A stretch of DNA of 64,000 nucleotides from positions 4,744 to 68,743 of the forward strand of contig JAUILH010000002.1 of assembly GCA_030433115.1 (NCBI GenBank), given 5' to 3'. Within the stretch, counting starts at the first letter, position 1; every line of letters starts with the position of its first letter. The translations under genes were made by a program, and so were the position numbers. This document shows, piece after piece, positions 25,634 through 57,178 of the stretch. Below the pieces are notes generated by a model, which was not told where the DNA came from, did not search any database, and saw only the letters and a program-made list of their open reading frames with translations. This stretch comes from Bacteroidia bacterium (GTDB lineage Bacteria; Bacteroidota; Bacteroidia; Flavobacteriales_D; JAUILH01).

Positions 25634-25659
25634 GTGCAATTAATAAGGCACGCTAGATT

Positions 25660-25814: not shown

Positions 25815-25815
25815 G

Positions 25816-39381: not shown

Positions 39382-41241
39382 ATGTCGCAGCTCAAATTTG
39401 CATTTACCTGGTCCTTAATATTTCTCTATTGTTTCGGGTGCTATGCTCAAAACGACTATAAAAAAGAGATTGACTCTTTGCACGCTCTGGTCGAGGATCC
39501 ATCTCGATCAGATTTGAAGAGGGCGAAGGACTACGTAGAGTTGTCCTCTTTTTACTTTCGACAGAACATTGATACGGTTGTAACTATATGCATCAAGGGC
39601 ATTAATTTTATTAATACCTGCAGTAATTCCAGAGAATCATCTATTCAAATAAGTAAATCCAAGCTTTGGATGAACATTGGATTTACATACTATTACCTCA
39701 ATAAGTTGGACCAATCTATTGAGGCTTTTTACAAATCTTTGGCGATTGCCGAAAACCATAGAGATCTCAAAACCATTGCGGATGTAAAAACAAATATTGC
39801 GAACGTAGAAATAGATTTGGAAGAACTAGAATCTGCCGAAAGGAATCTAAAACAGGTGCTCTTACTACAAAATGAACTTAGAGATTCTGCCGATATTGGA
39901 AGAACACTCAATACCTTGGGCTATATCTACAGAATATCTGGAGACAACAACCTGGCTCTTGATCACTATAAAAGAGCTCTGTACATAAGAATTGCTTCAA
40001 AAGATAGAATAGGTGAAGCAGCCTGCTACAACAATATCGCCTATATTCATCGGTCTGGAAAGCACTTTGAAAAAGCCATCGAGTATTATGACAAAGCGAT
40101 TGCTATTTATGAGGAAGAAAATGCACTCAATGGAATCGCTTTACTGTATGGGAATCGGGCCAATTGTTATTTGGAAATTGATGAGATTGAACAGGCCCTA
40201 AGCAACGCGCACAGGGGCTATAATTTGGCAACTAAACAAGGCTCAAAGAAAGATCTTATGTACCTCTCTGAAGTACTCTACACCATCTATAAAGAAAGGA
40301 GCAATTACAAGTTAGCGCTACATTATTTTCAGGAGTTTAATGCCTATAAAGATTCAGCAACATCTCAAAAACACTATAAAGAACTGATCAATCAGAAGCT
40401 TCAGTATGAATACAAGGAGAAGGAAAAAATCCTGGCTCTGGAGCATGAACAAGAGACACTCCTAAAAGAAAAGGAGCATACATATGCTATTGAGCGTTCA
40501 AAAGAAGAAAACAACAAGCTCTATTTTATAATTGTTACCGTATCTATTTTACTACTTGTCGTTATTGGTTTTCTGGTATATCTCAACAAACAAAAGCGCG
40601 TCATTCAAAGACAAAGCAAGGAATTGGAACTAATTGCCCTCAGGACACAAATGAATCCGCACTTCTTATTCAATAGTCTTAATTCAATTAAACTCTCCAT
40701 TATAGAAAACGACAAGGAGTTGTCTACTCATTACCTCACAAAGTTTTCAAAACTAGTACGACTGATACTGGAAAATTCCAATAAGAGCTTAATTTCATTG
40801 GAAGATGAACTAGAAACAACCAAGCTTTACTTGGAATTAGAACAGCTCCGTTTTAAAAATAAATTTCAGTTTAAAATTAATACCAATGCTGATATTTTGA
40901 TAGAACTTCCCCCATTGGTACTTCAGCCATATGTTGAGAACGCCATTTGGCATGGCATTATGCATTTAGACGGAGGTGGCCTGATAACAATTCGCACCTA
41001 TGAAGATAAACATGGCATTTGCATAGAAATCGAAGACAATGGTATTGGAAGAAAAAAGGCGACAGAGATAACTAGTGGTCAAGATCAAAAACAATCGATG
41101 GGTATGGATATCACTCAAAAGCGAATCCAAGCTTTGAACGAAATTACAGGAGTAAAACCCATAATTAAAATTGTTGACCTTGAGGAAGATCTAAAAGCAT
41201 CTGGTACCTTAGTAAAAATTTCTATTCCTTTCTATGAATAA
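39382..41241 (+). CDS. Sensor histidine kinase, LytS/YehU-type (extracytoplasmic TPR domain, one TM helix, His_kinase and HATPase domains)
   Basis: It has a signal peptide and TPR repeats (e.g. AIEYYDKAIAIYEE). The TM helix is LYFIIVTVSILLLVVIGFLVYL. LRTQMNPHFLFNSLNSI is the PF06580-type H-box, and QPYVENAIWHG...EIEDNGIG is the ATPase region. Confidence 0.88.
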   Translation: MSQLKFAFTWSLIFLYCFGCYAQNDYKKEIDSLHALVEDPSRSDLKRAKDYVELSSFYFRQNIDTVVTICIKGINFINTCSNSRESSIQISKSKLWMNIGFTYYYLNKLDQSIEAFYKSLAIAENHRDLKTIADVKTNIANVEIDLEELESAERNLKQVLLLQNELRDSADIGRTLNTLGYIYRISGDNNLALDHYKRALYIRIASKDRIGEAACYNNIAYIHRSGKHFEKAIEYYDKAIAIYEEENALNGIALLYGNRANCYLEIDEIEQALSNAHRGYNLATKQGSKKDLMYLSEVLYTIYKERSNYKLALHYFQEFNAYKDSATSQKHYKELINQKLQYEYKEKEKILALEHEQETLLKEKEHTYAIERSKEENNKLYFIIVTVSILLLVVIGFLVYLNKQKRVIQRQSKELELIALRTQMNPHFLFNSLNSIKLSIIENDKELSTHYLTKFSKLVRLILENSNKSLISLEDELETTKLYLELEQLRFKNKFQFKINTNADILIELPPLVLQPYVENAIWHGIMHLDGGGLITIRTYEDKHGICIEIEDNGIGRKKATEITSGQDQKQSMGMDITQKRIQALNEITGVKPIIKIVDLEEDLKASGTLVKISIPFYE

Positions 41242-41980
41242 GTTGAGAGCGATAATTATTGATGATGAGGCGCATTGCATCAAAACATTGCAATGGCAAC
41301 TAGAAAAGTACTGTCCGAATATTCAATTGATTGTGACTTTTGATTCTCCAAGAGATGGTTTGACTTTTTTGAGGGAAAACCCGATTGATTTATTATTTCT
41401 TGACATTGACATGCCAGGCATGACTGGTTTTGAATTATTGGAAAAAATTGAAAGTCCCAACTTTGACATTATTTTTACTACTGCACATGTACAATTTGCC
41501 TTAAAAGCCATTAAAATCAGTGCGTTGGATTATTTAATCAAACCTATTGATGACGAAGAATTAAGGCTTTCGGTAAATAAGGCTAGTGAAAAGAAACAAC
41601 TGTCATCACTCACTTCAATTTCTCATTTACTGGAACAGATAAAAAAGCAATCGGTTTCGGATCGCATTTATCTGCCTACAATTACAGGTTTGGAATTTGT
41701 TGACATAACGTCAATCAATCGCTGTGAAAGTGACAGCAATTATACCACTTTATTTCTTGAACAAGGCAAAAAAATCATTGTATCCAAACCCTTAAAAGAA
41801 ATTGGGGACATGCTCAAAACTAAGCAGTTTTTTAGGGTTCATAACTCACATATAGTGAATCTCAAAAGAGTTGGAAAATATGTAAAAGGAGATGGTGGTC
41901 ACTTAGTGATGCAATCCGGAGAGGTTATACCTGTTTCAAGATCCAGGAAACAGGCTCTAATGGATCATCTAAAAACATAA
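41234..41980 (+). CDS. LytTR-family response regulator (REC plus LytTR DNA-binding domain)
   Basis: The REC domain includes IIIDDE...DLLFLDIDMPGMTGFELL. The LytTR domain includes FFRVHNSHIVNLKRVGKY...IPVSRSRK. It overlaps the kinase gene by 8 nt. Confidence 0.92.
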   Translation: MNKLRAIIIDDEAHCIKTLQWQLEKYCPNIQLIVTFDSPRDGLTFLRENPIDLLFLDIDMPGMTGFELLEKIESPNFDIIFTTAHVQFALKAIKISALDYLIKPIDDEELRLSVNKASEKKQLSSLTSISHLLEQIKKQSVSDRIYLPTITGLEFVDITSINRCESDSNYTTLFLEQGKKIIVSKPLKEIGDMLKTKQFFRVHNSHIVNLKRVGKYVKGDGGHLVMQSGEVIPVSRSRKQALMDHLKT

Positions 41981-42021
41981 AGGCAGGCAGGCTTTAAACC
42001 TACCCGCCCTTATACTATATA

Positions 42022-43119
42022 CTATTTGCAATCTATAGCCCTTGGATGTGAGAAGTTATAAATTCCTGAGCAATACACATCTTCATACCCCGCCCCGTTG
42101 TATTGTGCTCTGAAAATATACTCTTGAACGTAGCACATACCATTTTCGAAAGTTGATTTGCAATATGCTACGATATTTTTCTCTAAAACAGCCCCTGTTA
42201 CTTTGTGATGAACAATGTTCCATTTTGAACTTCTGATTTTTACTGCTGAAAACTTTTCTTTATAACCATTACTGCTGCCAAAATATTGCACTTTTTGTAG
42301 CAAATCTTTTTCCAAATTTGCATCAGTCATACCTGCTTTATAGTCAGAAAATGTCACGCCTAATTCAGGCGCAAATTTTTCTCCGGAAGATTTTGTCAAC
42401 GTAAACTCACCAACAGCCACATTCTCTTCGGTAGAATATTTTGGGCTGCTACCTTGGTCATAGGCTATGACCTCTACTCTTATTTTGTGATTTCCTTCAG
42501 ATAATTTCTGCATGTGGTTGATCCACTTTAAACTAGGTTGTTTTTCTGATGTGACCGGAGAAATGTATCCTGTATACGCTGTTTGAGTAGATTTAAAAGG
42601 AACTTCTACCTGAAACACGATATCATCAATCAACTCGCCATCAATGAATACCTTCACTTTATGGGACCCATAATTATTAATTTTTGGTGTCCCTGTGCTT
42701 TCTCCCTCATACCATTTTTTAAAGGAGTTGTCGTAGTAATATCCTTTATTGATACTTCCATTATTATCAAGTGGATATAAGAGTTGATTTCTAAAAGACT
42801 TAGGCATAAAAAAAGTGAAATAGATAGATTCATTGATTCCAAAACTTGTTTTCACGTCAGACTGGGTAATGTCTTTAGGCTCCATTCTTTTATTCATAAA
42901 TACAACCTGATTGATGTTCGCTTTGTGAAAATCGTTAATAATACCATCATCTGGCACCAGCCCTGGTCGCATTAAAGCCCAGGTTTCTTCTTCATTTAAA
43001 TCTGAGCCCTTAACTTTTCCACGGGTTTTAGTGAGTCCTATTTTATCTTTCCAGGTTTGTCCATAGCCCTGTCCAATAGCCAATAATGTACCGATTGCAA
43101 TAATACATAGAGATTTCAT
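42022..43119 (-). CDS. Hypothetical exported protein
   Basis: The 365-aa ORF has the signal peptide MKSLCIIAIGTLLAIGQGYGQ and belongs to no family I recognise. Its start overlaps the stop of the phosphatase remnant (ATGA at 43116-43119). Confidence 0.6.
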   Translation of the reverse strand: MKSLCIIAIGTLLAIGQGYGQTWKDKIGLTKTRGKVKGSDLNEEETWALMRPGLVPDDGIINDFHKANINQVVFMNKRMEPKDITQSDVKTSFGINESIYFTFFMPKSFRNQLLYPLDNNGSINKGYYYDNSFKKWYEGESTGTPKINNYGSHKVKVFIDGELIDDIVFQVEVPFKSTQTAYTGYISPVTSEKQPSLKWINHMQKLSEGNHKIRVEVIAYDQGSSPKYSTEENVAVGEFTLTKSSGEKFAPELGVTFSDYKAGMTDANLEKDLLQKVQYFGSSNGYKEKFSAVKIRSSKWNIVHHKVTGAVLEKNIVAYCKSTFENGMCYVQEYIFRAQYNGAGYEDVYCSGIYNFSHPRAIDCK

Positions 43120-43665
43120 ACAGATTGATTTTTTATTTTGAGCGTCAAACTTAATTGGGAAGAATGGTCATTAACTCCCGAAATGAGTAGTTGGTGGATT
43201 TGAATCTCTGAATAACGTATGTGCGATTTAACTAACACATGCACTCCAATAACACATACGTCATCAAGCTGCTCAATGCTTCCTTTCCAATCTTCGAAGG
43301 CGGCATCTATCAATTCCCCTTGTTTCTCGATGGTTTTATCCTGCAGTGATAGTAGAAGACGCTTGAAATTAGTTGCTTTTAGCTTTTTACCGCCCGGTCG
43401 ACCACTTTCTCCTCCAAATTGATCCGCATAGCCATCGGAGAAAATGTAAATCACATCATTTGGTTCTAAAATAATTTCTTGTTCAGTGAAAGTCACTGCT
43501 TACCAAGTCTTTTGGTTTATACAACACAAACATATCTCCCATATTGGTTTTCAAATCTTGAACAGAGGCAATATGGCTTTTTGAAGGCGTTCCGTGTATT
43601 AAACACTGTCGCTGATTTTCTGGTGTGTTTCTTCTAGTTTGAGATGTTGAAGCTCATTTTTCGAT
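43116..43665 (-). pseudogene. Decayed SpoIIE/PP2C-family serine phosphatase gene (N-terminal sensor lost, internal deletion, frameshift and stops)
   Basis: An intact C-terminal piece remains: VIYIFSDGYADQFGG...KKLKATNFKRLL...WKGSIEQLDDVCVIGVHV. My own translation upstream in two other frames gives KNELQHLKLEETHQKISDSV*YTERLQKAILP and then MFVLYKPKDLVSSDFH*. These correspond to the pre-domain YAxxIQxAxLP and the FxxxxPKDxVSGDFYW start of the domain. The roughly 110-aa catalytic core between them is missing. Confidence 0.72.
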
Positions 43666-43774
43666 TTTGCGCTTCAACTGAGGCTCTTTGCTCATGAATG
43701 ATATTTTTTTGCCTAAAACTTTATTGAAGTGGTTACTTCTTGACTTATTTGACATAAAGCAAGTAAACTGTGTT

Positions 43775-44755
43775 ATGATGAATGATAATAGGCTCTTGCT
43801 GCTTGGTTTACATGTCATGTTGTGTTTAACGTCTTACTGTCAAATTCAGATTCCAAAATTTGACACATCCAAATCGGAATTTCCTTTATTCGATCAACAA
43901 TTATATATAGCTGGAGCAAAATCGGTTAAAGTTGTTGATGCCGGAGTTTACTCTGACTGGAAAAGGTTTACCAATGAGTCTCATTTTGACAGGAAAGGCA
44001 GGGTTAAGAAAAGATACTTTGCCAATGTAGGTTGGGTAACATATGATTATACCTTTTCTGAATCAGATATGTTGCTCAGTGTTGGTAAGTATATATATCA
44101 ATACGACGATAATTCTCGTCTGAGAAAAATACTTCACGACACCTTAACTTTAAGGGAGTTCACTTACAAAAAGTGGGGAGGTATTCAATCTGTAAAAGAA
44201 TATAAAGGTGATACAATTTATTCCATTAAAAAGTATGAATATGATGAGAATTCAAGATTGATCAACGTCTTTTACAACAATGTTTTAACTAAGGAATACG
44301 CATATTATAAAAACGATTCTGTACAATGGATCAAAGCCTATAGAAATGGACAATTATTTCAGTTTAGGGAATTTGAATATGAAGTATTGCCAAAAGAACC
44401 AGCATATGACCATTACTTTTCGCGGGTAGAACGAGAAACTAGAACAACCTATTCCCTTCATGACAGTGCACCTGAGATAGACACCTATCATTTTTATTTC
44501 AATAGAAGAAATCTGCTAAGTAAGATTGTAACTGATCAAGGTTTTTCTAGTATAAACGGGGTTTCTATTGAAACTGTGACGTTTAATGAAAATGATCAAA
44601 TAACCAGAATTTCGCACCATCTGAGCAATAAGGAGAGTTCAGGTTATCAAGAACGCATCTACAATAGACAGGGTATTTTGAAAAAAGTAGTTTGGTATAC
44701 CAATAACGGCGAGGAAAAAACCAGGGAATTTACTTTTTCATATAAGTTGTATTGA
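43775..44755 (+). CDS. Hypothetical exported protein with YD-repeat-like motifs
   Basis: I prefer the start at Met30 (43775; MMNDNRLLLLGLHVMLCLTSYCQ). The motifs YQYDDNSRLRKI and YEYDENSRLINV resemble YxYDxxxRL of YD/RHS repeats. Confidence 0.55.
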   Translation: MMNDNRLLLLGLHVMLCLTSYCQIQIPKFDTSKSEFPLFDQQLYIAGAKSVKVVDAGVYSDWKRFTNESHFDRKGRVKKRYFANVGWVTYDYTFSESDMLLSVGKYIYQYDDNSRLRKILHDTLTLREFTYKKWGGIQSVKEYKGDTIYSIKKYEYDENSRLINVFYNNVLTKEYAYYKNDSVQWIKAYRNGQLFQFREFEYEVLPKEPAYDHYFSRVERETRTTYSLHDSAPEIDTYHFYFNRRNLLSKIVTDQGFSSINGVSIETVTFNENDQITRISHHLSNKESSGYQERIYNRQGILKKVVWYTNNGEEKTREFTFSYKLY

Positions 44756-44797
44756 TCAGTTCCATTATCATGATTTTTTCACATCAACATAAAAACT

Positions 44798-45370
44798 ATG
44801 AATTATAAATATGTATTGTGGAGTATTCTGTTGCTCCTAAAAACACCTGTCATTTCTCAGTCCAAAGTCGGATTTAGCCATGAAATTGGAATGAATTATT
44901 TGGTTGCCGACTGGGATGACAATACATGCCTCATGTATTCTCCCGGACTCTATTTACGGATGAATCAGGATAACGCGATCACACTTAAATTCAATATCTC
45001 CGCTAGTGGATTTCAGGATGAAAATCCGCTGGTGATTGACATGCTCAGAGTAAGAGACACCCCATTTTTTCTCGGGTATCATTGGGGATCGGGCTCATCT
45101 ATTAACTCAGAAAGAACACTAGGATTTCATATGGGAATTGGAATAAGCAACTACAATTATTTGAGGGTTCGTGATGATCATGGCATATCACAGCCCACTC
45201 GAGAAAGTCATACTGTTATCTCACCATGCATGGAATTGGGTCTAAATACAGCCTTGTTCAATTTTGGAATTTATACCATCATGCCAAACTCCAACACCAA
45301 GCTTATTCTAGGTTTTTATTTACGCGGAGGTCCTTTTTTTATTGGAGACATTATAAAAAGTATGAAATAG
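44798..45370 (+). CDS. Hypothetical exported protein, possibly a small beta-barrel
   Basis: The 190-aa ORF has the signal peptide MNYKYVLWSILLLLKTPVISQ and alternating hydrophobic strands. The function call is weak. Confidence 0.45.
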   Translation: MNYKYVLWSILLLLKTPVISQSKVGFSHEIGMNYLVADWDDNTCLMYSPGLYLRMNQDNAITLKFNISASGFQDENPLVIDMLRVRDTPFFLGYHWGSGSSINSERTLGFHMGIGISNYNYLRVRDDHGISQPTRESHTVISPCMELGLNTALFNFGIYTIMPNSNTKLILGFYLRGGPFFIGDIIKSMK

Positions 45371-45472
45371 AGGTCATAAGGTATATAAGAGCGGATTGAG
45401 TTCGAACTTTTGGGAGGATTTGAGTTTGGTAGAGAGGATGGTCCTAGTGTGAAAGTATGGCTAAGCTGCGTT

Positions 45473-46969
45473 TCAATGCTGTTCAGGTTTTATCGACGGT
45501 AGTTTTTTTATCAATTCATATACCTTGCTTATCTCTGGATCAACTTTATCAATATAATTTTGCAAATCTTGTTTAACTAAAAAATGAGGGATTACTGGTA
45601 TGCCAATTTCAGTTTTAGAAAGTGCTATATGTCTTTCCATGGTTGGTAGTTCAAATCTGAAGCGAGAATTAGGCAAAGTGACGTGAAGGAAACCACCTCC
45701 ACAAAAAACCCCTCTAACACTGCCTGTTTCTTCTCCCACTATTGTTACATTTTCAAGTTCGGTGCATTTAGAAGCAAATATCGCACCTGCTGAAAAAGTA
45801 ATCCCACTTGTTAGAACAAAGGTATTTCCATAGTATTTGTTCTTTGTGATATTTTTAATCTTCATTTTGGGACCTGAAGGAATATGAGTGCAGGATTGAA
45901 TCTCCTTTGATTCAATACCGTCTGTCACTTTTAACCTTTGATTATCCAGTCTTAAAGTGTCATGTGTATTCAAAAAATTATAATGTCCGTCTGGATACTG
46001 GGTGTATACAGCAAAATCTTCAGTTCCATCTAGGTCGGTCACGCTATAATCAGTCCATTTGAAATCTTTAGGGCATAAGTAAGCAAATAAACACATGGCG
46101 AGTGCTCCAGAGCCTCCCCAATTTTCTCTTACATCAATTATAATATTCTCAATTTTCGACTTTCTGACCTTTTTAAAGAATCCATCAATAAACTTGTGAA
46201 AGTCTTGATTAGAATTCATAATCCGTCTGTAACCAAATGTATTAACCTCTATTATTGCGATATTGTTCTCCTTATCAAAAGTACTAGACAAGGGAGGTCT
46301 GGTATTCGAATTAATTCGAGTTTCATAATCTTTGATACCATCAATTGATTTTCGAATAGTATCTCCCAACACATTGATTGAGACAATATCATAGGTGTCA
46401 AATGGACCAAAGAAAAAATCAATATTTTGACCTAAAATTCTTTCGTTATATCGTTTTCTATAGATCGCGTTGTTATTGTCTGAGGTAGTATACCTAAAAC
46501 ATACTGAAAGAATTGAATCTGAAGAAATACTGTTAATGGAGACAATTTTTGTATGCAAGAAATCTGAAGTTCCAGAAATAAGGGTATCGACAATGTATAT
46601 TTCATTATCAATTATTTTATATCTAAAAGGTAGTGTTGTACTGCTTCTTTTCGTTGCGTTGTATTTCTCTCCAAGTGATAATCCTGTATGACCGTCTTTC
46701 AAATAGACTAATGATTCAAGAAGCTTTAGGTAGAAGGCATCAAAGGATATTGAGTCGGGAATCTCAGTGTTCAAACTTTTGAGAAGTGAATCAATTTCAA
46801 CTTTATTGCGATAAATATAACGTCCAGGATGATGATTAAGGGCATCTGAAAATACGATTAGGTCTTCATCCGCCTTTTTATGAGATAGATAAGGCTCTTG
46901 CGCGTCTGTTTCTGTGAAACCGAAAAAGAAAATAAGTGCGAGAATTGTTTGAAGTAAATATGGACGCAT
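45473..46969 (-). CDS. S41-family (tail-specific/C-terminal processing type) peptidase-like protein
   Basis: It has a signal peptide. IIDVRENWGGSGALAMCLFAYL matches the DxRxNxGG motif, and FVLTSGITFSAGAIFASK matches the catalytic Ser region TxSAxE-like. Confidence 0.7.
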   Translation of the reverse strand: MRPYLLQTILALIFFFGFTETDAQEPYLSHKKADEDLIVFSDALNHHPGRYIYRNKVEIDSLLKSLNTEIPDSISFDAFYLKLLESLVYLKDGHTGLSLGEKYNATKRSSTTLPFRYKIIDNEIYIVDTLISGTSDFLHTKIVSINSISSDSILSVCFRYTTSDNNNAIYRKRYNERILGQNIDFFFGPFDTYDIVSINVLGDTIRKSIDGIKDYETRINSNTRPPLSSTFDKENNIAIIEVNTFGYRRIMNSNQDFHKFIDGFFKKVRKSKIENIIIDVRENWGGSGALAMCLFAYLCPKDFKWTDYSVTDLDGTEDFAVYTQYPDGHYNFLNTHDTLRLDNQRLKVTDGIESKEIQSCTHIPSGPKMKIKNITKNKYYGNTFVLTSGITFSAGAIFASKCTELENVTIVGEETGSVRGVFCGGGFLHVTLPNSRFRFELPTMERHIALSKTEIGIPVIPHFLVKQDLQNYIDKVDPEISKVYELIKKLPSIKPEQH

Positions 46970-47207
46970 GATTTTTAGTGTTCATAACGCTCTAGTAAAT
47001 TTTGGTTACACATTTTACTCTTTAATCAATGCCAACTTGCTGTTATGCGTCACCATTATCAAAAAGTACAGATTAACTTATACTGAAGCAGAAAATCCGG
47101 CTATTCGGGATTACTATGATTCCTGATGTTTTCCTTGGGTACTTTTTGTGTCCAGGGCAGACTGTTACATCCAATCTTTACGCAACCTAAAAGTTAACTG
47201 TAATATT

Positions 47208-47236
47208 CCCCTCTCTGAAAAAAGTGATTTTGTTCG
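47208..47236 (+). promoter_or_regulatory. Recurrent intergenic motif, locus C (core GAAAAAAGTGA at 47217-47227)
   Basis: cccctctctGAAAAAAGTGAttttgttcgag is nearly identical to locus A. It lies about 245 bp upstream of the S41 peptidase start and about 50 bp downstream of the 61-aa ORF. Confidence 0.55.
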
Positions 47237-47283
47237 AGTATCTTCAGTTTTTCGATGAGCATGTTGGCGCAAGGAGATCAATC

Positions 47284-47469
47284 CTAATTTTTGGAATTTT
47301 CCTGCTCAAGTGTACGGATATAGTTTTCTAAAAGAAATATGGTAAACTTCTCTATTTCTCCAATATGATTCCACAATTCTTCGTCTGACGTGATTTCAAA
47401 TTTGCCCTCTTTGCTCTTCAACTTTTTGGGAGTAAGACCTGACTTACCAAGTTCATATACGTCTTTCAT
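47284..47469 (-). CDS. Small hypothetical protein (61 aa)
   Basis: It is an ORF only (MKDVYELGKSGLTPKKLKSKEGKFEITSDEELWNHIGEIEKF...). It is preceded by a phased direct repeat and a terminator, so it may be an independent transcription unit. Confidence 0.3.
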   Translation of the reverse strand: MKDVYELGKSGLTPKKLKSKEGKFEITSDEELWNHIGEIEKFTIFLLENYIRTLEQENSKN

Positions 47470-47502
47470 AATTTCAATAAAACATCAAACCCCAAGTACT
47501 AG

Positions 47503-47532
47503 TTCGAACCAAAAAGGGAAAATTTCGAACCA
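47503..47532 (-). promoter_or_regulatory. Two exact 9-bp direct repeats TGGTTCGAA (minus strand) with a 21-bp period, 34 bp upstream of the 61-aa ORF
   Basis: The plus-strand sequence ttcgaacca occurs at 47503-47511 and 47524-47532. Each repeat contains the palindrome TTCGAA. Confidence 0.45.
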
Positions 47533-47574
47533 GGACAAAAAGCTCGTAACACACTATTTATCAGTAGATTTAAA

Positions 47575-47610
47575 ACCAAAAAAAGCCAACCCCAACAGGA
47601 TTGGCTTTTT
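47575..47610. terminator. Bidirectional terminator hairpin just outside the distal tRNA-Arg repeat
   Basis: ccaaaaaaa-gccaacccc-aaca-ggattggc-tttttc has an A-run on one side and a T-run on the other. Confidence 0.7.
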
Positions 47611-47630
47611 CAAAGTGACCCCGCCAGGAT

Positions 47631-47788
47631 TACTCCATGATCCTTTGTACTCCGTTTTGAAATATGAAGTCTCCACGTTTTACAAACGTGGTACTTTTTT
47701 GTTTGACATTCTTTCGCTCAAACTTAGTTTGGCTCAATCTTGCCAAACAAAAAAGTCGTCCCGAATTCGGGACGACTTCATCTTATCC
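47631..47788 (-). repeat. tRNA-linked 158-bp structured non-coding module, copy 2 (3' of tRNA-Arg), flanked by a perfect 17-bp direct repeat
   Basis: It is homologous to 25660-25814. It is bracketed by gtgaccccgccaggatt at 47614-47630 and at 47789-47805, the latter being the 3' end of the tRNA. Its hairpins are at 47752-47778, 47727-47746 and 47672-47690. Confidence 0.88.
47748..47779 (-). terminator. Rho-independent terminator of tRNA-Arg (hairpin H3 of the module)
   Basis: On the minus strand, AAGTCGTCCCG-AATT-CGGGGACGACTT (one bulged base) is followed by TTTTTTG. Confidence 0.78.
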
Positions 47789-47789
47789 G

Positions 47790-47863
47790 TGACCCCGCCA
47801 GGATTCAAACCTGGAACCTCTTGAGCCGTAATCAAGTACTCTATTCAGTTGAGCTACGGGGCC
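47790..47863 (-). tRNA. tRNA-Arg (anticodon ACG)
   Basis: Hand-folded cloverleaf of 74 nt with no encoded CCA. Acceptor GGCCCCG/CGGGGTC (one G-U pair), D-arm GCTC-AACTGAATA-GAGT, anticodon arm CTTGA-TTACGGC-TCAAG, variable loop AGGTT, T-arm CCAGG-TTTGAAT-CCTGG, discriminator A. Confidence 0.9.
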
Positions 47864-47966
47864 AAATGTATTAAGCGATGGCAAATATATGGAAAGTATA
47901 TTGTTTGTCAATGGATTTTCTGATCTTGGCTATTCTGTGTAACTAATTTCTGCTGTTGACGTAACC

Positions 47967-49704: not shown

Positions 49705-50013
49705 CTATTGTATTTCTGCGTTGATACCCCTTTCCAAAATTGCAGTGCAAAGTGGTTCTAATTTTTCATATTCTCCTTCCTTGACGGAACATTTACCTTT
49801 ATAATGAATGATATGTGTACACTGTTCTGCCTGAATTAAATCGTGCTTACAAACCTTCACCAGGGTATCTATCACATGGTCAAAGGTGTTGACATCATCA
49901 TTGAACACTACAAGATGCTTGCCATCTATCATTTCTTCTAAAACAACAACATCTTCAAGCTCTTGAACATCTGCACTCGCAAGCACGTTATTCTCAAATA
50001 AATTATTTCTCAT
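49705..50013 (-). CDS. clpS: ATP-dependent Clp protease adaptor ClpS
   Basis: LVVFNDDVNTFDHVIDTLVKVCKHDLIQAEQCTHIIHYKGKCSVKEG is the conserved ClpS core. The start is uncertain (50013, 50031 or 50037), and every candidate overlaps the 3' end of the giant gene, whose stop is at 50003-50005. Confidence 0.88.
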   Translation of the reverse strand: MRNNLFENNVLASADVQELEDVVVLEEMIDGKHLVVFNDDVNTFDHVIDTLVKVCKHDLIQAEQCTHIIHYKGKCSVKEGEYEKLEPLCTAILERGINAEIQ

Positions 50014-53000
50014 TTGTTCTGGTTTTAGCATCTTCAATATCTATTTCTTCATACTTGAAAAGAGCCACAATTTCGGTGCCTTCCAAACCTTGATTGTCAA
50101 AATAGTCTTTAGCCTGCAATGCTTCTGCAAATGTACTAAAGCCCACGTAATATACGGTTTCAAAATTTTCATTTTCTTCAGAAGTCCAGTCTCTGCCTGA
50201 TGTTAACAAGACTTGAGAGAACGATTGCGGCGCTTCATTTTCATAGACTCCTAGGATTAAACGGTACTCCAAACCATCCACTGGTGTGGGTTCATTGAAT
50301 GTTGGGGCCGTATCTACTGGATCGGAATCCACGGGGGCCGAATCCACAGGGGCAGGGTCAACTGAATCTGGGTCACTTGGTTCAGGTCCCGGATCTATAT
50401 CTGTATCGTCAATGTCCTCATCTCTATTAATCTCAACATCCTCTCCCATTCTCAGTTTTTGCGCATCTTCCAAAGAAATTTCATTGAATCCGTATTTGGC
50501 TCGGATCTCTGCTCCTTCAATCCCTTGAGATTTAAAGAATTCCAATTCATCCTGGATAGACTTATAGTTTTCCATGCTATTGCTCTGATACAAGGTTCCG
50601 TTTTCTGTCTCATCTGAAGACACTTTATCCTGATTTGATAGCACAACAACTGAAAAATCGGCAGGGGCTTCTCCCTCAAACTCACCCAACCACACGTAGT
50701 ACGATAAACCTTCAATAACTACTTCATCAAAAGTCTTAGGATCAACTGTGGCATTGGCGGCACTGTTTTCTTCCGTCCATTCAAAAACAGCATCTCCCTT
50801 TTCATTGATCAACTGCTGTGCTCGTGCATTTGTAATCCTTTCACCATTATAATATGCGGTTACGAAGGCATCAGGAACAGGTCCGCCTCTAATTTCATCT
50901 CTTCTAGGAGCAGCTTCCTGAACGGATTTAAACACCCCTGTAGAGTACTTAAACAACTGATTTACCTTAAACACAACCAAAGGTTCAACTGGAATGATGC
51001 CATCCTGAATTGGTTTGGAATAGGCCCCTACCTGAACAGTGAAGTACAAACCTGGAATTCCAGCTCCCGGAATCGCGTCTGCCGCTCCAGCCGTGCTTTT
51101 TATCTGATCAATCAAATCCTTGCTTTCTTGAGATTCATTGTAGACCACTTTGCTGCCGTCATCTCCTTCAAATACCTGACTATTTCCAGTTTGGTTGCCT
51201 GTTTGATTACCAGCCTGATTGCCAGTTTGGTTCCCAGTTTGATTACCGGTTTGGGTTCCAGTTTGATTGCCTGTTTGATTACCAGTTTGGTTACCCGCTG
51301 CCACATCAATACCATCCGTGATTGGTGGATGCTCTTGTTCATAAGCTCTGGCCTGAGCCAAGTTGACGCGTTCACCGTCAATGTATGCCACAACAAAGGC
51401 ATCATCATACCCTCCAAAGCCTCTGATTGTAGTTTTCGCTTCATTGGCTGTTTTATAATCACCAAAATACCCCACCATATATCGTTTAAGGTCTCCACGG
51501 ATGGTTTCCCCTGAGATTGGGGTAAATTGATTGAACAAATCCTGAGGAATTGGTCGTGCATAGGCACCAACCTGGACTTTATAAACCAGGCCTTTCGGAT
51601 TGTCCACATCCATTGGGATTGGCTTGTCTTCGTTGTACAAAGATTGATTTGTAGTGGCGAAAATGTTTGTATTCAAACTATCCGGAACAGTAAAGTCTGC
51701 ATCTGTAGGATCCAAAATATTCACTGGTGTCATGATTGGAGACGGCATATTATCACCATGAGTACCGGTCAAGTCTCTAAATCTATCGCCTTTGTTATCT
51801 GGCAATTCAGATCTATACTTAATCAAACCATCAAAACTGATTTTATAGCCTCTTTCCTTTTCCTCAGTATCTGCTTTGGCTACGTCCAACTGATCGTTTA
51901 GATCGTTTATTTCGCCTTGAACACCAACGATTCTTTGATTATAGCCATCTTGCTCATCATCCGGAGCAGTTGCAGCTTCCGACTGAAGATCAAGCAGTTC
52001 TCTTTCTTTTTTCTTAAGCTGCTCCTCTATATCGTTCTTATTCTGGATGGCATCTTCATAGTCTTGTTTTTTGGTTTTGTTTTCCTGTAACAAACCAAAA
52101 TAAATTTGGTAATCTTCATCTCGTCGTAATGCGTCTTCCTCTCCTGGCGACAGGTCCTTAGGTGCATCTGCTATTTTCTGTGTTTCGATGGCTTTGTTCT
52201 CAGCATCTGCTATATCATCAGCTTTCTTTTTTGTTCTTACCGCTTTATCTCTCAACTCATCGGCTTCTCTATCCAATTGGTCGGCTTGTGCAGTCAATGC
52301 CTTTTTATCCTTTTTCTTGGCATCCTTAGCTTCTTGTCTCAAGGCAGCTGCTTCATTTTCTTTTTGAGTTGCCTGTTGGTTGTAGTCGTCTGCTTTACTG
52401 TAGATCTGACCAGACTTACGTTCATTTGGATCGGCGGAAATATCTGTTACATCAATGGTCTTAGCTGGATCTGAGATGCTGCCCGGTTCGTAAAACTCGT
52501 CAGACATTTCCGTAAACATGTTATACGCCTCAGTTTTCTTTCCTATGGCATCATTCTCTTTTTTGACGGCAGATTTAATCAAGCTGTTTTTCTCAGAGTT
52601 GTCTTTGGTATCGTCAGCTTTTGATCTGAGACCTTTTGCTTCATCAAATAACTCATCCGCCTTTTTATCTAAATCGCTCGCCTTAACATAGTCAGGATTT
52701 GAAGAATCCGCTACACCATTATTGGTGGCATTGTCTTTTGCCGTATTGGTTTGATCGCTTTGATTTGTGAATTGAGCTTGATTTGAGTCACCCAACTTCT
52801 GACCAACCTTGATTTCTTCTTTGTCTTTTTTGTCCTGAAGTTTATCGATTTTCTTATCGATGGCTGCTTTTTCTTTATCTGAATCGGCAGCGTCTTTTTC
52901 ATCATTCAAAGCATCAATGGCCGAATTATAGTTCTGAATCTTTTCGCGTCCCTTTTCAGTATCCTTATAATTATCCAGAGCGCTATCATCTGTATAATTG

Positions 53001-56000
53001 ACCGCTGTACTGGTATAATCAGGCTGAGACTTCACGATAATGCTTTGGTTCATTGTGATATCGTTGAGACGGTCGTTCTTCAGGTCGTTGAGTTGATCGA
53101 TTGTATTCTGTCCTGTTTCTTCATCGATATCTCCCGATTTCATGCCCTTTTCGGTCGACTCTATTTCATCATCAATCTTTTTGATAACGTCTTCATTCAA
53201 TTCATTGCGCTTACGGGCCTTGTCTTCCTCAGAGTCGTTGCCCCCATCAATAGTCGCTTGCCTTGAAGAGAATTCGCTCAACAGATCATCAAAAGAAATT
53301 TTGCCTGCTCTATCAGGTGTGGATGCTATATCCTGCAGACCATTGTTCTCTGCCGTTAGCTCATCTGTGAGTCGCTCAATGTCGTTCAAACCATTGAAAT
53401 ACGTATCATCATCAATGGTTCCATTGTTGTGTGCATCCTCCAATTCTCCCTTTTTAACATTCAGTTTGTCGATCATGTCATTGTTGCTCGCAATGATTTG
53501 TTCTGCCTTTTCTGATTCGCTCAAGTCCGGATTGCTGTTAATATCTGACTTACCACTCATGAAACCGGGGTCCAAAGCATCAAAACTGATTTTACCTCCT
53601 GGCGTGGAATCTGTAGAAGCATCCGCGATGGTCTGATAGCCCTCATTATCCGATTGAATATTAGCAGCAATTTCATCTAATTTATCTACTGCTGCCTGGT
53701 AATCATCATCCGATAAGTTTCCTTGATCCCGCTGCTGAGTTAACCTGGTTTTCTCATCTTCAATCTTACCCAAAAGGGTGTTGTTTTCATCAATTTTTTG
53801 TTGTGCTTTTTGACCTTCAGTAAGGTTTGGATCATTGTCTATATTGTCCAATGTAGACTGATGATTTGGATCGAGATTAGCCACATTGATGTCATCCAAA
53901 TTAAAGCTTGTAGAGGTTGTTCCGTTGATGATTTCATCGTTATTGGCAATGTCATCCCTAAGCCCTCTTGCCATGTCGTCTAACTTTTCATTTCTGGCAT
54001 CTGCCGTCGACTGATCTATATCTCCTGCATTGAGAGCAGCTTGCGTTTCTGATTTGGCATCATCAATTTTATCCAACAATCTATTATTCAGATCGTTTTT
54101 CTGTTTGGCCTTGTCTTCCGGAGACGCATTTGATGTTTCAATGGTATTAATCTCATCATTAAAACCGGGATCTATGTCGCCAACAGACACATCTGCACTT
54201 AAGTTATTTCCTACCGGCGGATCAGTATCTGTAGCAGCTATTAGCTGTTTATTCTCATCAATTCGGTTTTGAATATCATCCTTTAATTTGTCCAGGTCAG
54301 ATTTCTTTTGGTCTCCCTGCGCCTGAGTCAAATCACCATCACTTACTTGATCATCAATGGCCCGTTTTTCATCTTCAATTTTACTAATGAGATCATCATT
54401 GATCTTGTTTTCTGCTTTGGCTTTGTCGGCAGGATTGGTGATGTCATCCAATGCTGAGATTTGATCATTGTAACCAGGCAAAATGTCGTTAGGATTGGCC
54501 ATTTGATCAGAACCATTCTTCAAGAGGTCCTGGTTAGCAGCAATGTCATCTTCTTTTCTCTTCTTGAGGTCGTTTAAGCCATCTATTTGTGTTTTGATGT
54601 CAGATTTTTTGTCTGGGTCTGTTTCACTATCATATTGATCCTGAAGGTCTGCAATGTCTTTATCCAGTTGATCTACCCAATTCTGATCATTTTTAATCTG
54701 GTCTTGAATTCCATCAAAATCCTTATCCCTGAACTGATCGTATTTAGGATCATCGATTGCACCCGCGTACACAGGATCTTGAGATTTGACTTCTTCCAGG
54801 AGATCTTTGGTATTGGTGAAAGACTGGTCTATGTCCGAACCATTTTGCAATTTATCGTTCAGACTTTTCAGTTCCTGCTCGCCAACCGGTCCTCCAGCAA
54901 CCAGGTCGTAATTACCAGCTGCGACATCCCATGCATTTTGAGCTTGATTGGCTGCTTTTTCATCTTCAATAAGTTTGGAGGACAGGTCTTTAACTTTATT
55001 TTGTGCGTCAGACAGTTCGTCTTCTTTTCTGGCAATCTCTTCTTCAATTCCGGGTTTATCTTTCTTTTTGGCATTGTCTAGTTGCCCTTTAAGGTCAGTT
55101 ATCTCATCTTTTATGTCCTGAACAAGCCCTTTGTTGGCAGCTAATTGCTTTCTGGTTTTATCTGCAGCAGACTTTTTATCGTTATAGTCTTGCTCATATT
55201 TGGCTATTTCTTCATCATTGCTGTCACTGGCTTGTCGATCCATGACGCCCTTAATGAAATCTTGTTGTTCTTTCAGTTTGTCTACCGCATCTTCTAAATT
55301 ATTGCCATCCAGCGCATCTTTAATGCCTGATGCGAACTCTTTGGCAGTTTCATAGTCATCCTTAATGAGTTTTTCATCTTCCTCCAATTTCTTACCAACA
55401 CCATGCGCTAACCGCGCCTTATCCATATAGTTTTCTGAATCTGCAATGTGTTGTTTGGCTTCTTCCAGATACTTCTCTCTATCATCTGCATTATTAGAGT
55501 TTTTTGCTTTGTTGATGGCTTCTTTAGCTTTGTCATCAGACGCTTTGGCTTTTTTGAAATTGTCATTTGCGACAGAGAATGCTGCATCCTTTTTGTCTCT
55601 CGTATCTTCGAGTTCTTTCTTAAGATCGTCGGCGTCCTTCTGGGCAGAGGCAATGATCTCTTCATTGGTCATATCAGTTGGCGGCGGTGTATTGTCCTCT
55701 GGAAATTGGTCGGCGTTCACATCCAACTTGGCTCTATCGTTGACTATTTGACTGAGGATAGTTTCAGAATCTGGCACGTCTTCTCCGTATCTGGTATCAA
55801 TCTTAATGGTTTCTTTTCCTGCTTCTGCCATTAAAGAAATCTCTTGTGGTACCACCATCATTTTGTCATTGTAAGGCAACTCCACTACCCCTTGATGCGT
55901 GATATCACTCTGGGCTGTTTTAATTTTGAAGTTATACTTACCACTTTTAGGCAACGTAATTAAGTAATCTCCGGAAGCATTGTTGGCATTGTACACTCCA

Positions 56001-57178
56001 ACTACCTCTCCAGTTTGTGCGTTCTCTACCTGAATACTTGCTGCCCGTTTGCTTGGATCTATGTCGTTGTTGAATTTTCCTTTTAGCACCACTATTTGTG
56101 CAGGGTAACGCTTCACCCGTACATTGTACACATGAAATTGATTCAATCCGGCCTCTCTATTGGAAGAAAAATAGGCTTCATTGTCTTCACTATCCACCAC
56201 ATACATAATGTCGTCTGCCGGTGTATTAATTGAAAAGTCTAAATTCTCCGGTTTCCCAATTGCCTGACCGTTTTCATCAATTTTAATCCGGAAGATATCA
56301 TAACCTCCCATGGTATTATGTCCTTTGGAGCTGAAGTATAAATATTCTCCATTAGGATGCAGGAAAGGGTAATCTTCATCATATCTGGTATTGACATCTC
56401 CCCGCACAATTTGAGACTTCCCCCACTCTCCATTGGGTAGACGTTTAATCATGTAAATATCTTTACCGTTACTCCCATCTTCCCCGTAGCTGGAGAAAAA
56501 CACCATTTTGGTTTCATTGGACCTTTCGGGAATATGAACCACCACATCTTCATCTCTCTTTTTATCGGTTTTGGTCCGCATTTCGTCCAGATTCTTGGCG
56601 TTGATCATGCTTCCGCCTATGCCATCCAGGTTGTAGTAGTTGTAGAAATTATCTATACCGGATTTCTTTTTACTGATGACGGCCACATCTGTGATGCTGG
56701 ATAACAATTTCTTTCCGTACTCTGCAGATTGAATATCGTGAGCCACATCAAATTTCTTCTTGTCTTTGGCATCTCCGTATTTCTGAAACTTCTTATAGTA
56801 CATGAGAGCCTGCTTGAAACGGTAATTCATATGCAAGGCCCGACCAAGGAAATAGTCGTGAAGAATGGGAATCCCGTCTTTTTCATCACTTTCTTTGAGG
56901 TACTTGAGTGCCAGTTCTTTTTGTTCTGTAACCATCAAGAGGCACGCTCCATACTTATAGCGATACTCATAATTTCCCTGAAAGTTGTTGAGCAGTTTTT
57001 TATACTTTTCAAGCGCGCCAGAGTAGTCCCCATCTTCAAACATGGCATCTGCTTCCTTTTTAATTTTCTCAAAGGTCTTGTCATCAGGTACCTGGTTTGG
57101 CACATCAGAATAAGATGAGCAAACAATGACCACCAGAAGGCAAATGATATGTTTCAGTCTGTACAGCAAATCAAACAA
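50003..57178 (-). CDS. Giant (2391 aa) envelope-associated protein: TPR, PD40/TolB-like repeats, CarboxypepD_reg-like domain, about 1300-aa acidic coiled-coil/repeat region, four SPOR-like domains
   Basis: The N-terminus has a signal/anchor and TPR repeats (GDYSGALEKYKKLL). PD40 motifs are YLYFSSKGHNTMGGYDIFRI and AYFSSNREAG. IVVLKGKFNN...TGEVVGVYNANNASGDYLITLPKSGKYNFKI is CarboxypepD_reg-like. Residues of about 480-1800 are D/E/K/N/Q-rich. The SPOR-like stretches are LVYKVQVGAYARPIP..., LYFTVQVGAYSKPIQ..., LSYYVWLGEFEGEAP... and LEYRLILGVYENEAP... Confidence 0.9.
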   Translation of the reverse strand: MFDLLYRLKHIICLLVVIVCSSYSDVPNQVPDDKTFEKIKKEADAMFEDGDYSGALEKYKKLLNNFQGNYEYRYKYGACLLMVTEQKELALKYLKESDEKDGIPILHDYFLGRALHMNYRFKQALMYYKKFQKYGDAKDKKKFDVAHDIQSAEYGKKLLSSITDVAVISKKKSGIDNFYNYYNLDGIGGSMINAKNLDEMRTKTDKKRDEDVVVHIPERSNETKMVFFSSYGEDGSNGKDIYMIKRLPNGEWGKSQIVRGDVNTRYDEDYPFLHPNGEYLYFSSKGHNTMGGYDIFRIKIDENGQAIGKPENLDFSINTPADDIMYVVDSEDNEAYFSSNREAGLNQFHVYNVRVKRYPAQIVVLKGKFNNDIDPSKRAASIQVENAQTGEVVGVYNANNASGDYLITLPKSGKYNFKIKTAQSDITHQGVVELPYNDKMMVVPQEISLMAEAGKETIKIDTRYGEDVPDSETILSQIVNDRAKLDVNADQFPEDNTPPPTDMTNEEIIASAQKDADDLKKELEDTRDKKDAAFSVANDNFKKAKASDDKAKEAINKAKNSNNADDREKYLEEAKQHIADSENYMDKARLAHGVGKKLEEDEKLIKDDYETAKEFASGIKDALDGNNLEDAVDKLKEQQDFIKGVMDRQASDSNDEEIAKYEQDYNDKKSAADKTRKQLAANKGLVQDIKDEITDLKGQLDNAKKKDKPGIEEEIARKEDELSDAQNKVKDLSSKLIEDEKAANQAQNAWDVAAGNYDLVAGGPVGEQELKSLNDKLQNGSDIDQSFTNTKDLLEEVKSQDPVYAGAIDDPKYDQFRDKDFDGIQDQIKNDQNWVDQLDKDIADLQDQYDSETDPDKKSDIKTQIDGLNDLKKRKEDDIAANQDLLKNGSDQMANPNDILPGYNDQISALDDITNPADKAKAENKINDDLISKIEDEKRAIDDQVSDGDLTQAQGDQKKSDLDKLKDDIQNRIDENKQLIAATDTDPPVGNNLSADVSVGDIDPGFNDEINTIETSNASPEDKAKQKNDLNNRLLDKIDDAKSETQAALNAGDIDQSTADARNEKLDDMARGLRDDIANNDEIINGTTSTSFNLDDINVANLDPNHQSTLDNIDNDPNLTEGQKAQQKIDENNTLLGKIEDEKTRLTQQRDQGNLSDDDYQAAVDKLDEIAANIQSDNEGYQTIADASTDSTPGGKISFDALDPGFMSGKSDINSNPDLSESEKAEQIIASNNDMIDKLNVKKGELEDAHNNGTIDDDTYFNGLNDIERLTDELTAENNGLQDIASTPDRAGKISFDDLLSEFSSRQATIDGGNDSEEDKARKRNELNEDVIKKIDDEIESTEKGMKSGDIDEETGQNTIDQLNDLKNDRLNDITMNQSIIVKSQPDYTSTAVNYTDDSALDNYKDTEKGREKIQNYNSAIDALNDEKDAADSDKEKAAIDKKIDKLQDKKDKEEIKVGQKLGDSNQAQFTNQSDQTNTAKDNATNNGVADSSNPDYVKASDLDKKADELFDEAKGLRSKADDTKDNSEKNSLIKSAVKKENDAIGKKTEAYNMFTEMSDEFYEPGSISDPAKTIDVTDISADPNERKSGQIYSKADDYNQQATQKENEAAALRQEAKDAKKKDKKALTAQADQLDREADELRDKAVRTKKKADDIADAENKAIETQKIADAPKDLSPGEEDALRRDEDYQIYFGLLQENKTKKQDYEDAIQNKNDIEEQLKKKERELLDLQSEAATAPDDEQDGYNQRIVGVQGEINDLNDQLDVAKADTEEKERGYKISFDGLIKYRSELPDNKGDRFRDLTGTHGDNMPSPIMTPVNILDPTDADFTVPDSLNTNIFATTNQSLYNEDKPIPMDVDNPKGLVYKVQVGAYARPIPQDLFNQFTPISGETIRGDLKRYMVGYFGDYKTANEAKTTIRGFGGYDDAFVVAYIDGERVNLAQARAYEQEHPPITDGIDVAAGNQTGNQTGNQTGTQTGNQTGNQTGNQAGNQTGNQTGNSQVFEGDDGSKVVYNESQESKDLIDQIKSTAGAADAIPGAGIPGLYFTVQVGAYSKPIQDGIIPVEPLVVFKVNQLFKYSTGVFKSVQEAAPRRDEIRGGPVPDAFVTAYYNGERITNARAQQLINEKGDAVFEWTEENSAANATVDPKTFDEVVIEGLSYYVWLGEFEGEAPADFSVVVLSNQDKVSSDETENGTLYQSNSMENYKSIQDELEFFKSQGIEGAEIRAKYGFNEISLEDAQKLRMGEDVEINRDEDIDDTDIDPGPEPSDPDSVDPAPVDSAPVDSDPVDTAPTFNEPTPVDGLEYRLILGVYENEAPQSFSQVLLTSGRDWTSEENENFETVYYVGFSTFAEALQAKDYFDNQGLEGTEIVALFKYEEIDIEDAKTRTNEK
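50303..50392 (-). repeat. In-frame 15-bp (5-aa) tandem repeat encoding PGPEPSDPDSVDPAPVDSAPVDSDPVDTAP
   Basis: About four (D)(S/P)(A/D)PV units lie between the third and fourth SPOR-like domains. Confidence 0.7.
51182..51295 (-). repeat. In-frame 12-bp tandem repeat, about 9.5 copies, encoding (GNQT)n
   Basis: The protein segment is GNQTGNQTGNQTGTQTGNQTGNQTGNQAGNQTGNQTGN (aa 1962-1999). The plus-strand unit is ccagtttgRttN. Confidence 0.9.
53024..54487 (-). repeat. Five divergent tandem repeats of about 98 aa within the acidic region (aa 898-1385)
   Basis: Each unit begins (L/I)DPG(F/Y)xxxI, then has NP/SPxxKAxxKxxxNxxLxxKIxDEK, then GD(I/L)(D/T) ... D(K/Q)L(D/N)D. Unit starts are at aa 898, 1000, 1099, 1198 and 1296. 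Confidence 0.75.

Follow-up and report, generated by a model that had tools for sequence, protein, structure and literature searches.

A gene-less 157-bp module bracketed by a repeat of the tRNA-Arg 3' end in a Bacteroidia genome: a candidate family of miniature elements at tRNA genes

Islands and prophages classically land at transfer RNA (tRNA) genes, where a short repeat of the tRNA end is routinely taken as proof of an integrase event. In the case described here, such a repeat brackets a gene-less module of 157 bp. It lies in a 64,000-nt stretch of the Bacteroidia bacterium contig JAUILH010000002.1 (GCA_030433115.1; positions 4,744 to 68,743, forward strand), which is called the window throughout and supplies the coordinates used below. 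An intact gene for tRNA-Arg(ACG), which the insertion has targeted, occupies 47789-47863 on the minus strand (ARAGORN; Rfam RF00005, 58.2 bits) and is preceded by a promoter-like site, TTGACA-16-TATATT (47884-47911, minus strand), recognised by consensus match only. The functional 3' end of this tRNA, from A58 to one base past the discriminator (47789-47805), recurs as a perfect displaced copy at 47615-47631, both being exact 17-bp matches on the minus strand. On the tRNA strand, the 17-mer is made up of AAT (T-loop positions 58-60), CCTGG (3' half of the T-stem), CGGGGTC (3' strand of the acceptor), the discriminator A and a final C. An exact search for GTGACCCCGCCAGGATT finds these two plus-strand occurrences in the window and no third copy even with up to two mismatches allowed, and no match arose by chance in 100 dinucleotide-preserving shuffles. 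Identity is lost sharply at both edges of the repeat, and the four bases preceding the displaced 17-mer mismatch the T-loop. The two 17-mers are spaced 174 bp from start to start and enclose 157 bp (47632-47788). A preliminary description of this DNA had rightly recognised the exact repeat and had set its distal copy one base off, at 47614-47630; the 158 bp and 175 bp that it gave for the enclosed segment and the spacing are corrected by these measurements.

The same tRNA gene is found without the module in a related Flavobacteriales organism, at a locus (L003) on the 2.27-Mb contig ERZ25074695 ctg340534. There, tRNA-Arg(ACG), identical in sequence to that of the window, runs straight into TTTGAAAAAGCCAATCCTGTTGGGGTTGGCTTTTT, which is the sequence that follows the displaced 17-mer in the window; relative to this site, the window has 174 bp (157 + 17) extra. 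The ancestral tRNA-Arg terminator, a terminator-like site 100% identical to the hairpin directly after the L003 tRNA-Arg, now stands 174 bp downstream in the window (47579-47611, minus strand), and the homology of the two flanks beyond the tRNA extends for ~85 nt. To the right of tRNA-Arg, the gene order of L003 is conserved (a 137-aa protein, an M48 peptidase, ClpS, a 2387-aa protein, PlsY and a 1502-aa protein). Sampling of this lineage is poor, with only 61% identity between the neighbouring 188-aa protein and its next homologue, on the 2.27-Mb contig, and the taxon names attached to the relatives are Crocinitomicaceae, Cryomorphaceae or Flavobacteriales. Read from this sequence comparison, 47632-47788 is an insertion relative to the orthologous empty site, and the predicted junction of an empty allele is tRNA-Arg joined directly to TTTGAAAAAGCC.

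The 35-nt terminator region that follows tRNA-Arg in the relative, and the displaced 17-mer in the window, is itself 100% identical between the two (window 47579-47614, L003 9759-9793), a conservation unusually strong for an intergenic hairpin, the proteins of both genomes being only ~61-67% identical. It contains AACCCCAACAGGATT (47588-47602), which matches the tRNA-Arg 3' end at 12/15 positions and is the same in L003, where another tRNA-3'-like stretch, AGGTTAGAATTGTCCTGTTGGGGT on the tRNA strand, occurs ~110 nt downstream (L003 coordinates about 9666-9690 and 9767-9781). These stretches may be relics of older duplications at this place, each reaching only the 95% level of chance. Between the old terminator and a 61-aa open reading frame (ORF), at 47483-47540 (minus strand), stand two T-loop-like GGTTCGAA motifs 25 nt apart, one of them followed by the loosely tRNA-3'-like CTAGTACTTGGGGTTTGA. 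A search of the window for further, degenerate tRNA-Arg 3' ends gave the single 12/15 match inside the old terminator, at chance level. A larger island at tRNA-Arg was rejected, with no further copies of the tRNA 3' end above chance in the window.

The module is not confined to tRNA-Arg. The window holds only two tRNAs, Arg(ACG) and Val(GAC), and a module lies directly 3' of each. The tRNA-Val(GAC) gene, the second occupied target, is likewise intact (25815-25890, minus strand; ARAGORN; Rfam 68.6 bits), and is followed by a copy of 155 bp (25660-25814, minus strand) recognised by blastn, by alignments, by its terminators and by a covariance model (182.6 bits, against 194 bits for the Arg copy at 47632-47788, minus strand, the segment absent in L003). 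The Val and Arg copies have the same orientation relative to their tRNAs and are 83% identical overall; blastn aligns them at 87.6% over 105 bp, to which an identical 20-bp tRNA-proximal end is to be added. At 25643-25659 (minus strand), a degenerate displaced tRNA-Val 3' end can be read from the sequence, 12/17 positions matching, its place being given by that of a better preserved copy in the relative. This better copy belongs to the orthologous tRNA-Val locus (L006) of the genome that also contains L003, where the gene upstream of tRNA-Val is 67% identical to that in the window. The tRNA-Val of L006 carries a module of 158 bp and a displaced repeat matching at 16/17 positions (GTGGGGCATACTGGATT versus GTGAGGCATACTGGATT), in a register identical to that at tRNA-Arg.

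A fourth copy stands at the orthologous tRNA-Arg locus (L021) of a third related genome, again beside the identical tRNA-Arg(ACG). The contig end cuts this module, and its far junction lies beyond the sequence; over 73 nt it is 78% identical to the L006 Val module, and it can barely be aligned to the Arg copy of the window. The site at tRNA-Arg(ACG) is thus occupied in the window, empty in the L003/L006 genome and occupied in the L021 genome, and the site at tRNA-Val(GAC) is occupied in the window and in the L003/L006 genome. All copies have one orientation; wherever the far end is visible, the repeat runs from A58 to the base after the discriminator (position 74), and the three full copies measure 155, 157 and 158 bp. 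The modules cluster by genome lineage and not by tRNA, with a divergence that reaches ~60% identity. With only the two window copies as its input, a covariance model recovers the L006 copy at full length (E = 3e-14), and no other match was found in the 94 kb made up by the window, L003 and L006. More distant neighbours of the flanking genes (L009-L011 and L022-L024) lack the tRNA at the locus. In the preliminary description, a module found at this locus only, with no empty site in any relative and no other copy flanked by tRNA-derived repeats, or a 17-mer belonging to a larger segmental duplication, was to count as refutation. Neither is what was found: the L003 site provides the empty tRNA-Arg, and further copies exist at tRNA-Val in the window (25643-25814) and in L006, with the tRNA-Arg of L021 also to be listed.

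Several contigs end at or near these features. The Logan metagenome contigs L001 and L002, of the same strain as the window, begin (position 1) at a point 37 nt short of the tRNA-Arg 3' end; the contig of L021 breaks off (position 1) inside the module tail. These are branch points of the assembly graph, consistent with a tRNA or module that other loci or strains in the samples share. The read sets SRR24442557 and ERR3420974 contain the organism of the window.

The preliminary description had called the segment one made entirely of hairpins, and folding agrees: the module region reaches a minimum free energy (MFE) of -85.7 kcal/mol for 221 nt (z = -7.9), and the Arg segment has two terminator-like hairpins on the tRNA strand and a third on the opposite strand. 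Folded independently, all three full copies form one and the same four-way junction on the tRNA strand, composed of a closing stem, P1, and three hairpins, H1, H2 and H3. The 5' strand of P1, ATGAAGTC (47774-47781, minus strand), pairs with its 3' strand, GACTTCAT (47664-47671, minus strand), in the MFE folds and the pair counts, and the stem covaries, ATGAAGTC/GACTTCAT in the window corresponding to CAATGCAAA/TTTGCATTG in L006. H1 (47752-47779, minus strand) is a terminator-like hairpin with a T-tract that directly follows the tRNA and serves as its predicted replacement terminator; it contains a perfect 13-bp palindrome (47753-47778), all six of its core pairs are changed on both sides (6/6), and such a hairpin and T-tract directly follow the tRNA, as predicted, in 4/4 copies. 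The long central hairpin H2 (47693-47756, minus strand), an inverted repeat also seen in the folds and pair counts, pairs the T-tract TTTTTTGTTTG with CAAACAAAAAA. H3 (47673-47691) is terminator-like on the plus strand, where TACTTTTTTG follows it; it occurs as an opposite-strand terminator in the window Val copy as well, and 5/8 of its pairs are changed on both sides. In a model-guided alignment, 95.7% of the cells are paired and 24/47 pairs are changed on both sides, counts that are somewhat inflated by an alignment fitted to the structure and with which the separate MFE folds agree; none of 500 shuffles reaches the observed level, and slid controls give 35-46% paired. In each of the three full copies, folding on the tRNA strand is the more stable, and that strand has five G-U pairs versus one on the opposite strand.

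Beyond P1, a distal tail (…GGAGTACAAAGGATCATGGAGT; 47632-47663, minus strand), delimited by the alignments, adjoins the displaced 17-mer; its counterparts lie at 25660-25691 in the window and at 3676-3707 in L006. The best-conserved primary sequence of the module is found here, in the last ~22 nt before the displaced 17-mer: GGAGACnAATGGATCATAGGAT is identical at 20/22 positions in the two Val copies, which come from different genomes, and the Arg copy differs at 4-5 positions. The three sequences hint that the tail may match its own tRNA. The WGGAT of the tail can pair with the ATCCW of the 17-mer, by A-U at Arg and by U-A at Val. The module has no terminal inverted repeats, its ends on the tRNA strand being GGATAAG... 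and ...CATGGAGT, and the only inverted repeats in it are the internal, covarying stems. A scan of three copies against Rfam 15 at permissive E-values matched only the tRNAs, any other matches being far below threshold and different between copies, and a known RNA family was thereby rejected.

There is likewise little sign of a gene. A 144-aa ORF (47390-47824, plus strand) runs through the module antisense to the tRNA, and translations of the module in several concatenated frames have no protein relative at E <= 10. A protein-coding module was rejected on the antisense position of the ORF, the lack of relatives and module lengths that differ by non-multiples of three, and the statement of the preliminary description that the segment has no credible ORF holds in substance. 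An antisense ORF stays open through the displaced 17-mer and the module and into the tRNA in the three full copies (47390-47824 and 25634-25870 in the window and 3632-3889 in L006, all plus strand). These points argue that the ORF is probably spurious, although gene callers could still annotate it.

Domains of integrases, transposases, reverse transcriptases and Cas1 were sought in the 64-kb window, with Pfam on all large ORFs and with PHROGs and NCBIfam on the neighbouring ORFs, and none was found, in agreement with the earlier remark that no integrase or transposase is seen there. The junction patterns of the element gave no match in viral contigs, the family patterns gave only chance matches in them, none with a tRNA, and blastn against phages and plasmids gave none. 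Metagenome scans brought no further module copy, and a scan of a genome collection with a pattern of the module ends, from which the source genome is evidently absent, gave two chance matches inside coding regions. A parent integrative and conjugative element (ICE) or integrative and mobilisable element (IME), or any full-length element with the module ends, was not found in the viral, metagenome and genome scans. The predicted junction of an excised circle is GGATCATGGAGT-AATCCTGGCGGGGTCAC-GGATAAGATG.

What recurs at two tRNA species in three genomes is a module inserted at (or precisely lost from) the tRNA 3' end, with a fixed-register duplication of 17 nt and a conserved fold that brings a predicted replacement terminator. 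On balance, with somewhat better than even confidence, we take 47632-47788 to be one of a family of 155-158-bp cargo-less, non-autonomous modules that insert at tRNA 3' ends in one orientation. Known from four copies only, the family is one that we read as akin to miniature transposable elements of the inverted-repeat type (MITEs) and cis-mobilisable elements (CIMEs). The 17-bp repeat would then most likely be copied from the target, as a target-site duplication, and not be an integrase core borne by the element, because homologous modules carry tRNA-specific repeats (Arg versus Val). Modules of one subfamily stand at both tRNAs in each lineage, and a target-site duplication appears to be the most economical account.

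How such insertions could come about may be sketched as follows. A trans-acting enzyme with its gene elsewhere in the genome would recognise a feature common to tRNA genes, most simply the T-arm with its GGTTYGAATCC, and would make two nicks 17 bp apart, one between G57 and A58 in the T-loop on one strand and the other just past position 74 on the other. The module would be joined at the nicks, and repair filling the 17-nt gaps would yield the 17-bp target-site duplication. Such insertions would survive because the tRNA stays intact and gains a new terminator, H1 with its T-tract taking over from the old one. The resemblance of copies within a lineage would be the pattern expected of continuing transposition from lineage-specific source copies. 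It is possible, and we put it forward only tentatively, that the module is the first miniature element in bacteria to be specific for the whole class of tRNA genes, and that its trans-acting enzyme, either like Cas1 or the casposase or new in kind, recognises the T-arm and measures a fixed 17 bp. On this view, the four-way junction, together with the tRNA-matched tail (WGGAT against ATCCW of the T-stem), would help to select or hold the target.

Several observations weigh against an inserting family of this sort. The known copies are few (n = 4, at two tRNA species in three genomes), the L021 copy is incomplete, the 12/17 repeat at the window tRNA-Val is not significant alone, and the covariation counts carry the inflation mentioned above. 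Precise loss could equally account for the empty site in L003. The perfect 17/17 repeat at tRNA-Arg is not proof of a recent insertion, as roughly one such repeat in four would still be unchanged at the 17% divergence of the two window copies. Metagenome, genome, viral, phage, plasmid and protein searches brought no further copies, and no mobilising enzyme, autonomous partner or excised form was seen. To our knowledge, a 17-bp duplication without terminal inverted repeats fits no characterised bacterial transposase.

An integrase could also have left this footprint, the module being either a minimal CIME (two attP arms) that carries the 17-bp core and was inserted by a tyrosine integrase in trans, or the scar of a deleted island, and we consider this unlikely. 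The geometry is that of attL and attR, with a block of identity from the T-loop to the end of the gene, and the 157 + 17 = 174 bp come close to the size of an attP. The L003 empty site is as clean as precise excision leaves it. Repeats of 17 bp at tRNA genes are a common footprint of islands (PMC548262, PMC4891358), and CIMEs are defined as having lost their genes for integration and transfer with attL and attR kept (PMC5704250). However, an integrase predicts one core and one tRNA for each element family, whereas homologous modules here have different cores, both within the window (Arg versus Val, 83% identical) and between genomes (L006 Val versus the L021 module at the Arg site, 78%). If an element with a Val core entered tRNA-Arg, either a hybrid and dead tRNA or a distal repeat of Val type would remain, according to the position of the crossover within the 17-mer, whereas both Arg copies are perfect Arg sequence; and the T-loop cannot be the overlap region, because the four bases before the displaced 17-mer mismatch it. 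No integrase is found in the 64 kb, no larger element with these junctions appears in viral contigs, and the independent decay of islands would not give one 155-158-bp unit four times. Two readings of the preliminary description lose ground here: a classic integrase attL/attR is doubtful, given tRNA-specific 17-mers (Arg versus Val) in one register and no integrase nearby, and the scar of an island that later deleted is unlikely, given a unit that recurs at two tRNAs in three genomes. Its remaining reading, a miniature non-autonomous or tRNA-targeting element, fits a cargo-less unit that is a true insertion and has several copies.

Two further explanations were weighed. A host terminator cassette could have been spread without any enzyme of its own, by replication template switching through microhomology and then by gene conversion: a nascent strand would exit after ...TCAC, copy a donor module and re-enter at the T-loop AATCC. 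As tRNA-Arg and tRNA-Val share the bases at the repeat edges (AATCC... and ...TCAC), the 17-nt duplication would be regenerated in register, the module would provide terminators that the host is predicted to be able to use, and the resemblance within lineages is what concerted evolution gives. Yet no fewer than three or four rare events would have had to occur independently at the same two junctions, the first duplication is left unexplained, as are the conserved P1 and distal tail, neither of which two terminators require, and the shared edge bases are merely conserved positions of tRNAs; this course of events seems to us very unlikely. We give even less credence to an old, resident structured RNA of the tRNA 3' trailer, with a role in termination or processing, of which the Arg copy in L003 was lost by recombination between the 17-mers. 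Compensatory conservation of the fold across genomes whose proteins are ~51-67% identical speaks for such an RNA, as do the greater stability of the tRNA-strand fold in three full copies (G-U pairs five versus one) and a tRNA-Val that is occupied in both genomes examined. On the other side, grouping by lineage and not by locus is a misfit for orthologous descent alone, H1 comes first and should stop most transcripts short of the remaining module, the displaced 17-mer, perfect at Arg, is decayed at the window Val, no Rfam family matches, and the origin would still require an insertion that duplicates 17 nt.

Two other ideas were tried and set aside. An RNA-guided system, in which the module is a scaffold with a 17-nt guide (TnpB/IscB, or the homing crRNA of a CRISPR-associated transposon), was rejected as the principal explanation: transcription should already end at H1, ahead of the scaffold, a conserved internal promoter is lacking, the 'guide' at the window Val is decayed, and such systems work without target duplication. 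The primer-binding site of a retroelement was rejected, as the repeat is direct in orientation and lacks CCA.

Set beside known systems, the inserting module family shares features with several and agrees fully with none. With tRNA-integrating islands, prophages and CIMEs it has in common the insertion at a tRNA 3' end, the intact tRNA, the bracketing direct repeat from the T-loop and the clean empty site. Unlike them, it has neither integrase nor cargo, measures 157 bp where the described CIMEs reach kilobases, and has a repeat that is tRNA-specific and does not behave as an element-borne core. The repeat and intact tRNA expected of an attL/attR element are present, whereas an integrase within or adjoining it and a shared element-borne core are not; and, of what defines a CIME, att-like repeats exist, tRNA-specific across the copies, with no parent ICE or IME matched. 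Like bacterial MITEs, the modules are small, non-coding, strongly folded, multi-copy and non-autonomous, resemble each other within lineages and have a target duplication (17/17 at Arg, 16/17 at the L006 Val, 12/17 at the window Val). Unlike MITEs, they lack terminal inverted repeats, having only an internal, covarying closing stem, no parent insertion sequence (IS) is known, the duplication is 17 bp against the usual 2-10 bp, and target and orientation are strictly those of a tRNA end. The palindrome-associated transposable elements (PATEs) derived from IS200/IS605 are also short, non-coding hairpin elements without terminal inverted repeats that stand in one orientation 3' of a motif, and all copies of the module come after ...TCAC; those elements make no target duplication, whereas the module duplicates 17 bp.

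A characterised precedent for such a mechanism is that of casposons. The casposase of Aciduliprofundum boonei integrates in a staggered manner with a 15-bp target-site duplication that overlaps the 3' end of tRNA-Pro, and requires the T-loop region to act as a 'leader' (PMC5137440). Both have a fixed, long duplication at a tRNA 3' end near the T-loop, of 17 bp in the module (at both tRNAs) and 15 bp in the casposon. Casposons are, however, large elements with terminal inverted repeats and with genes for Cas1 and PolB, neither of which genes was found in the window, and their duplication overlaps the tRNA by only 5 bp. We know of no casposon from Flavobacteriales, and the likeness would be one of mechanism and not of membership. 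Among eukaryotic DNA transposons, Dada, reportedly described by Kojima and Jurka in 2013, is said to insert specifically into multicopy small-RNA genes, including tRNA genes, and to leave a functional gene copy; it is said to differ from the module in having autonomous copies with a DDE transposase, 6-7 bp duplications and terminal inverted repeats. As regards a role in the host, the G+C-rich hairpin and T-tract directly after the gene that mark an intrinsic terminator are predicted for H1 in 4/4 copies. A literature search brought to light no account of a cargo-less module present at different tRNA genes, each time with a repeat specific to that tRNA, which is not proof of absence.

If the duplication is indeed derived from the target, some 'att scars' at tRNA genes would be target-site duplications of a tRNA-specific miniature element, and there would be an enzyme with the ability to measure 17 bp from a tRNA gene's T-loop, which would be relevant to work on site-specific insertion. 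Such modules would also rewire the termination of tRNA genes and might escape island-finding software. The family offers a testable handle, in that the covariance model and the junction rule could be applied to Flavobacteriales genomes.

Some other features of the window deserve mention. On the left of tRNA-Arg, the window and the relative are not syntenic in gene content (window 39382-47469 versus L003 6316-9622), whereas the right side is conserved; the genes on the left in the window are those of a TPR-histidine kinase, a LytTR response regulator, a SpoIIE-domain fragment, an S41 peptidase and the 61-aa ORF. The tRNA-Arg gene is a breakpoint of gene order, but an island signature (integrase, repeat) was not found there. 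The SpoIIE-domain fragment is a 126-aa ORF (43116-43496, minus strand) that has only the C-terminal part of the phosphatase domain and abuts, with a 4-nt overlap, a domain-less 365-aa ORF (42022-43119, minus strand); here a start may have been mis-called, or a gene may be fused or disrupted. Finally, in two giant proteins of 2391 and 1503 aa (50003-57178 and 57853-62364, minus strand), Pfam domains are almost absent, and their size and position are conserved in L003 (2387 and 1502 aa).

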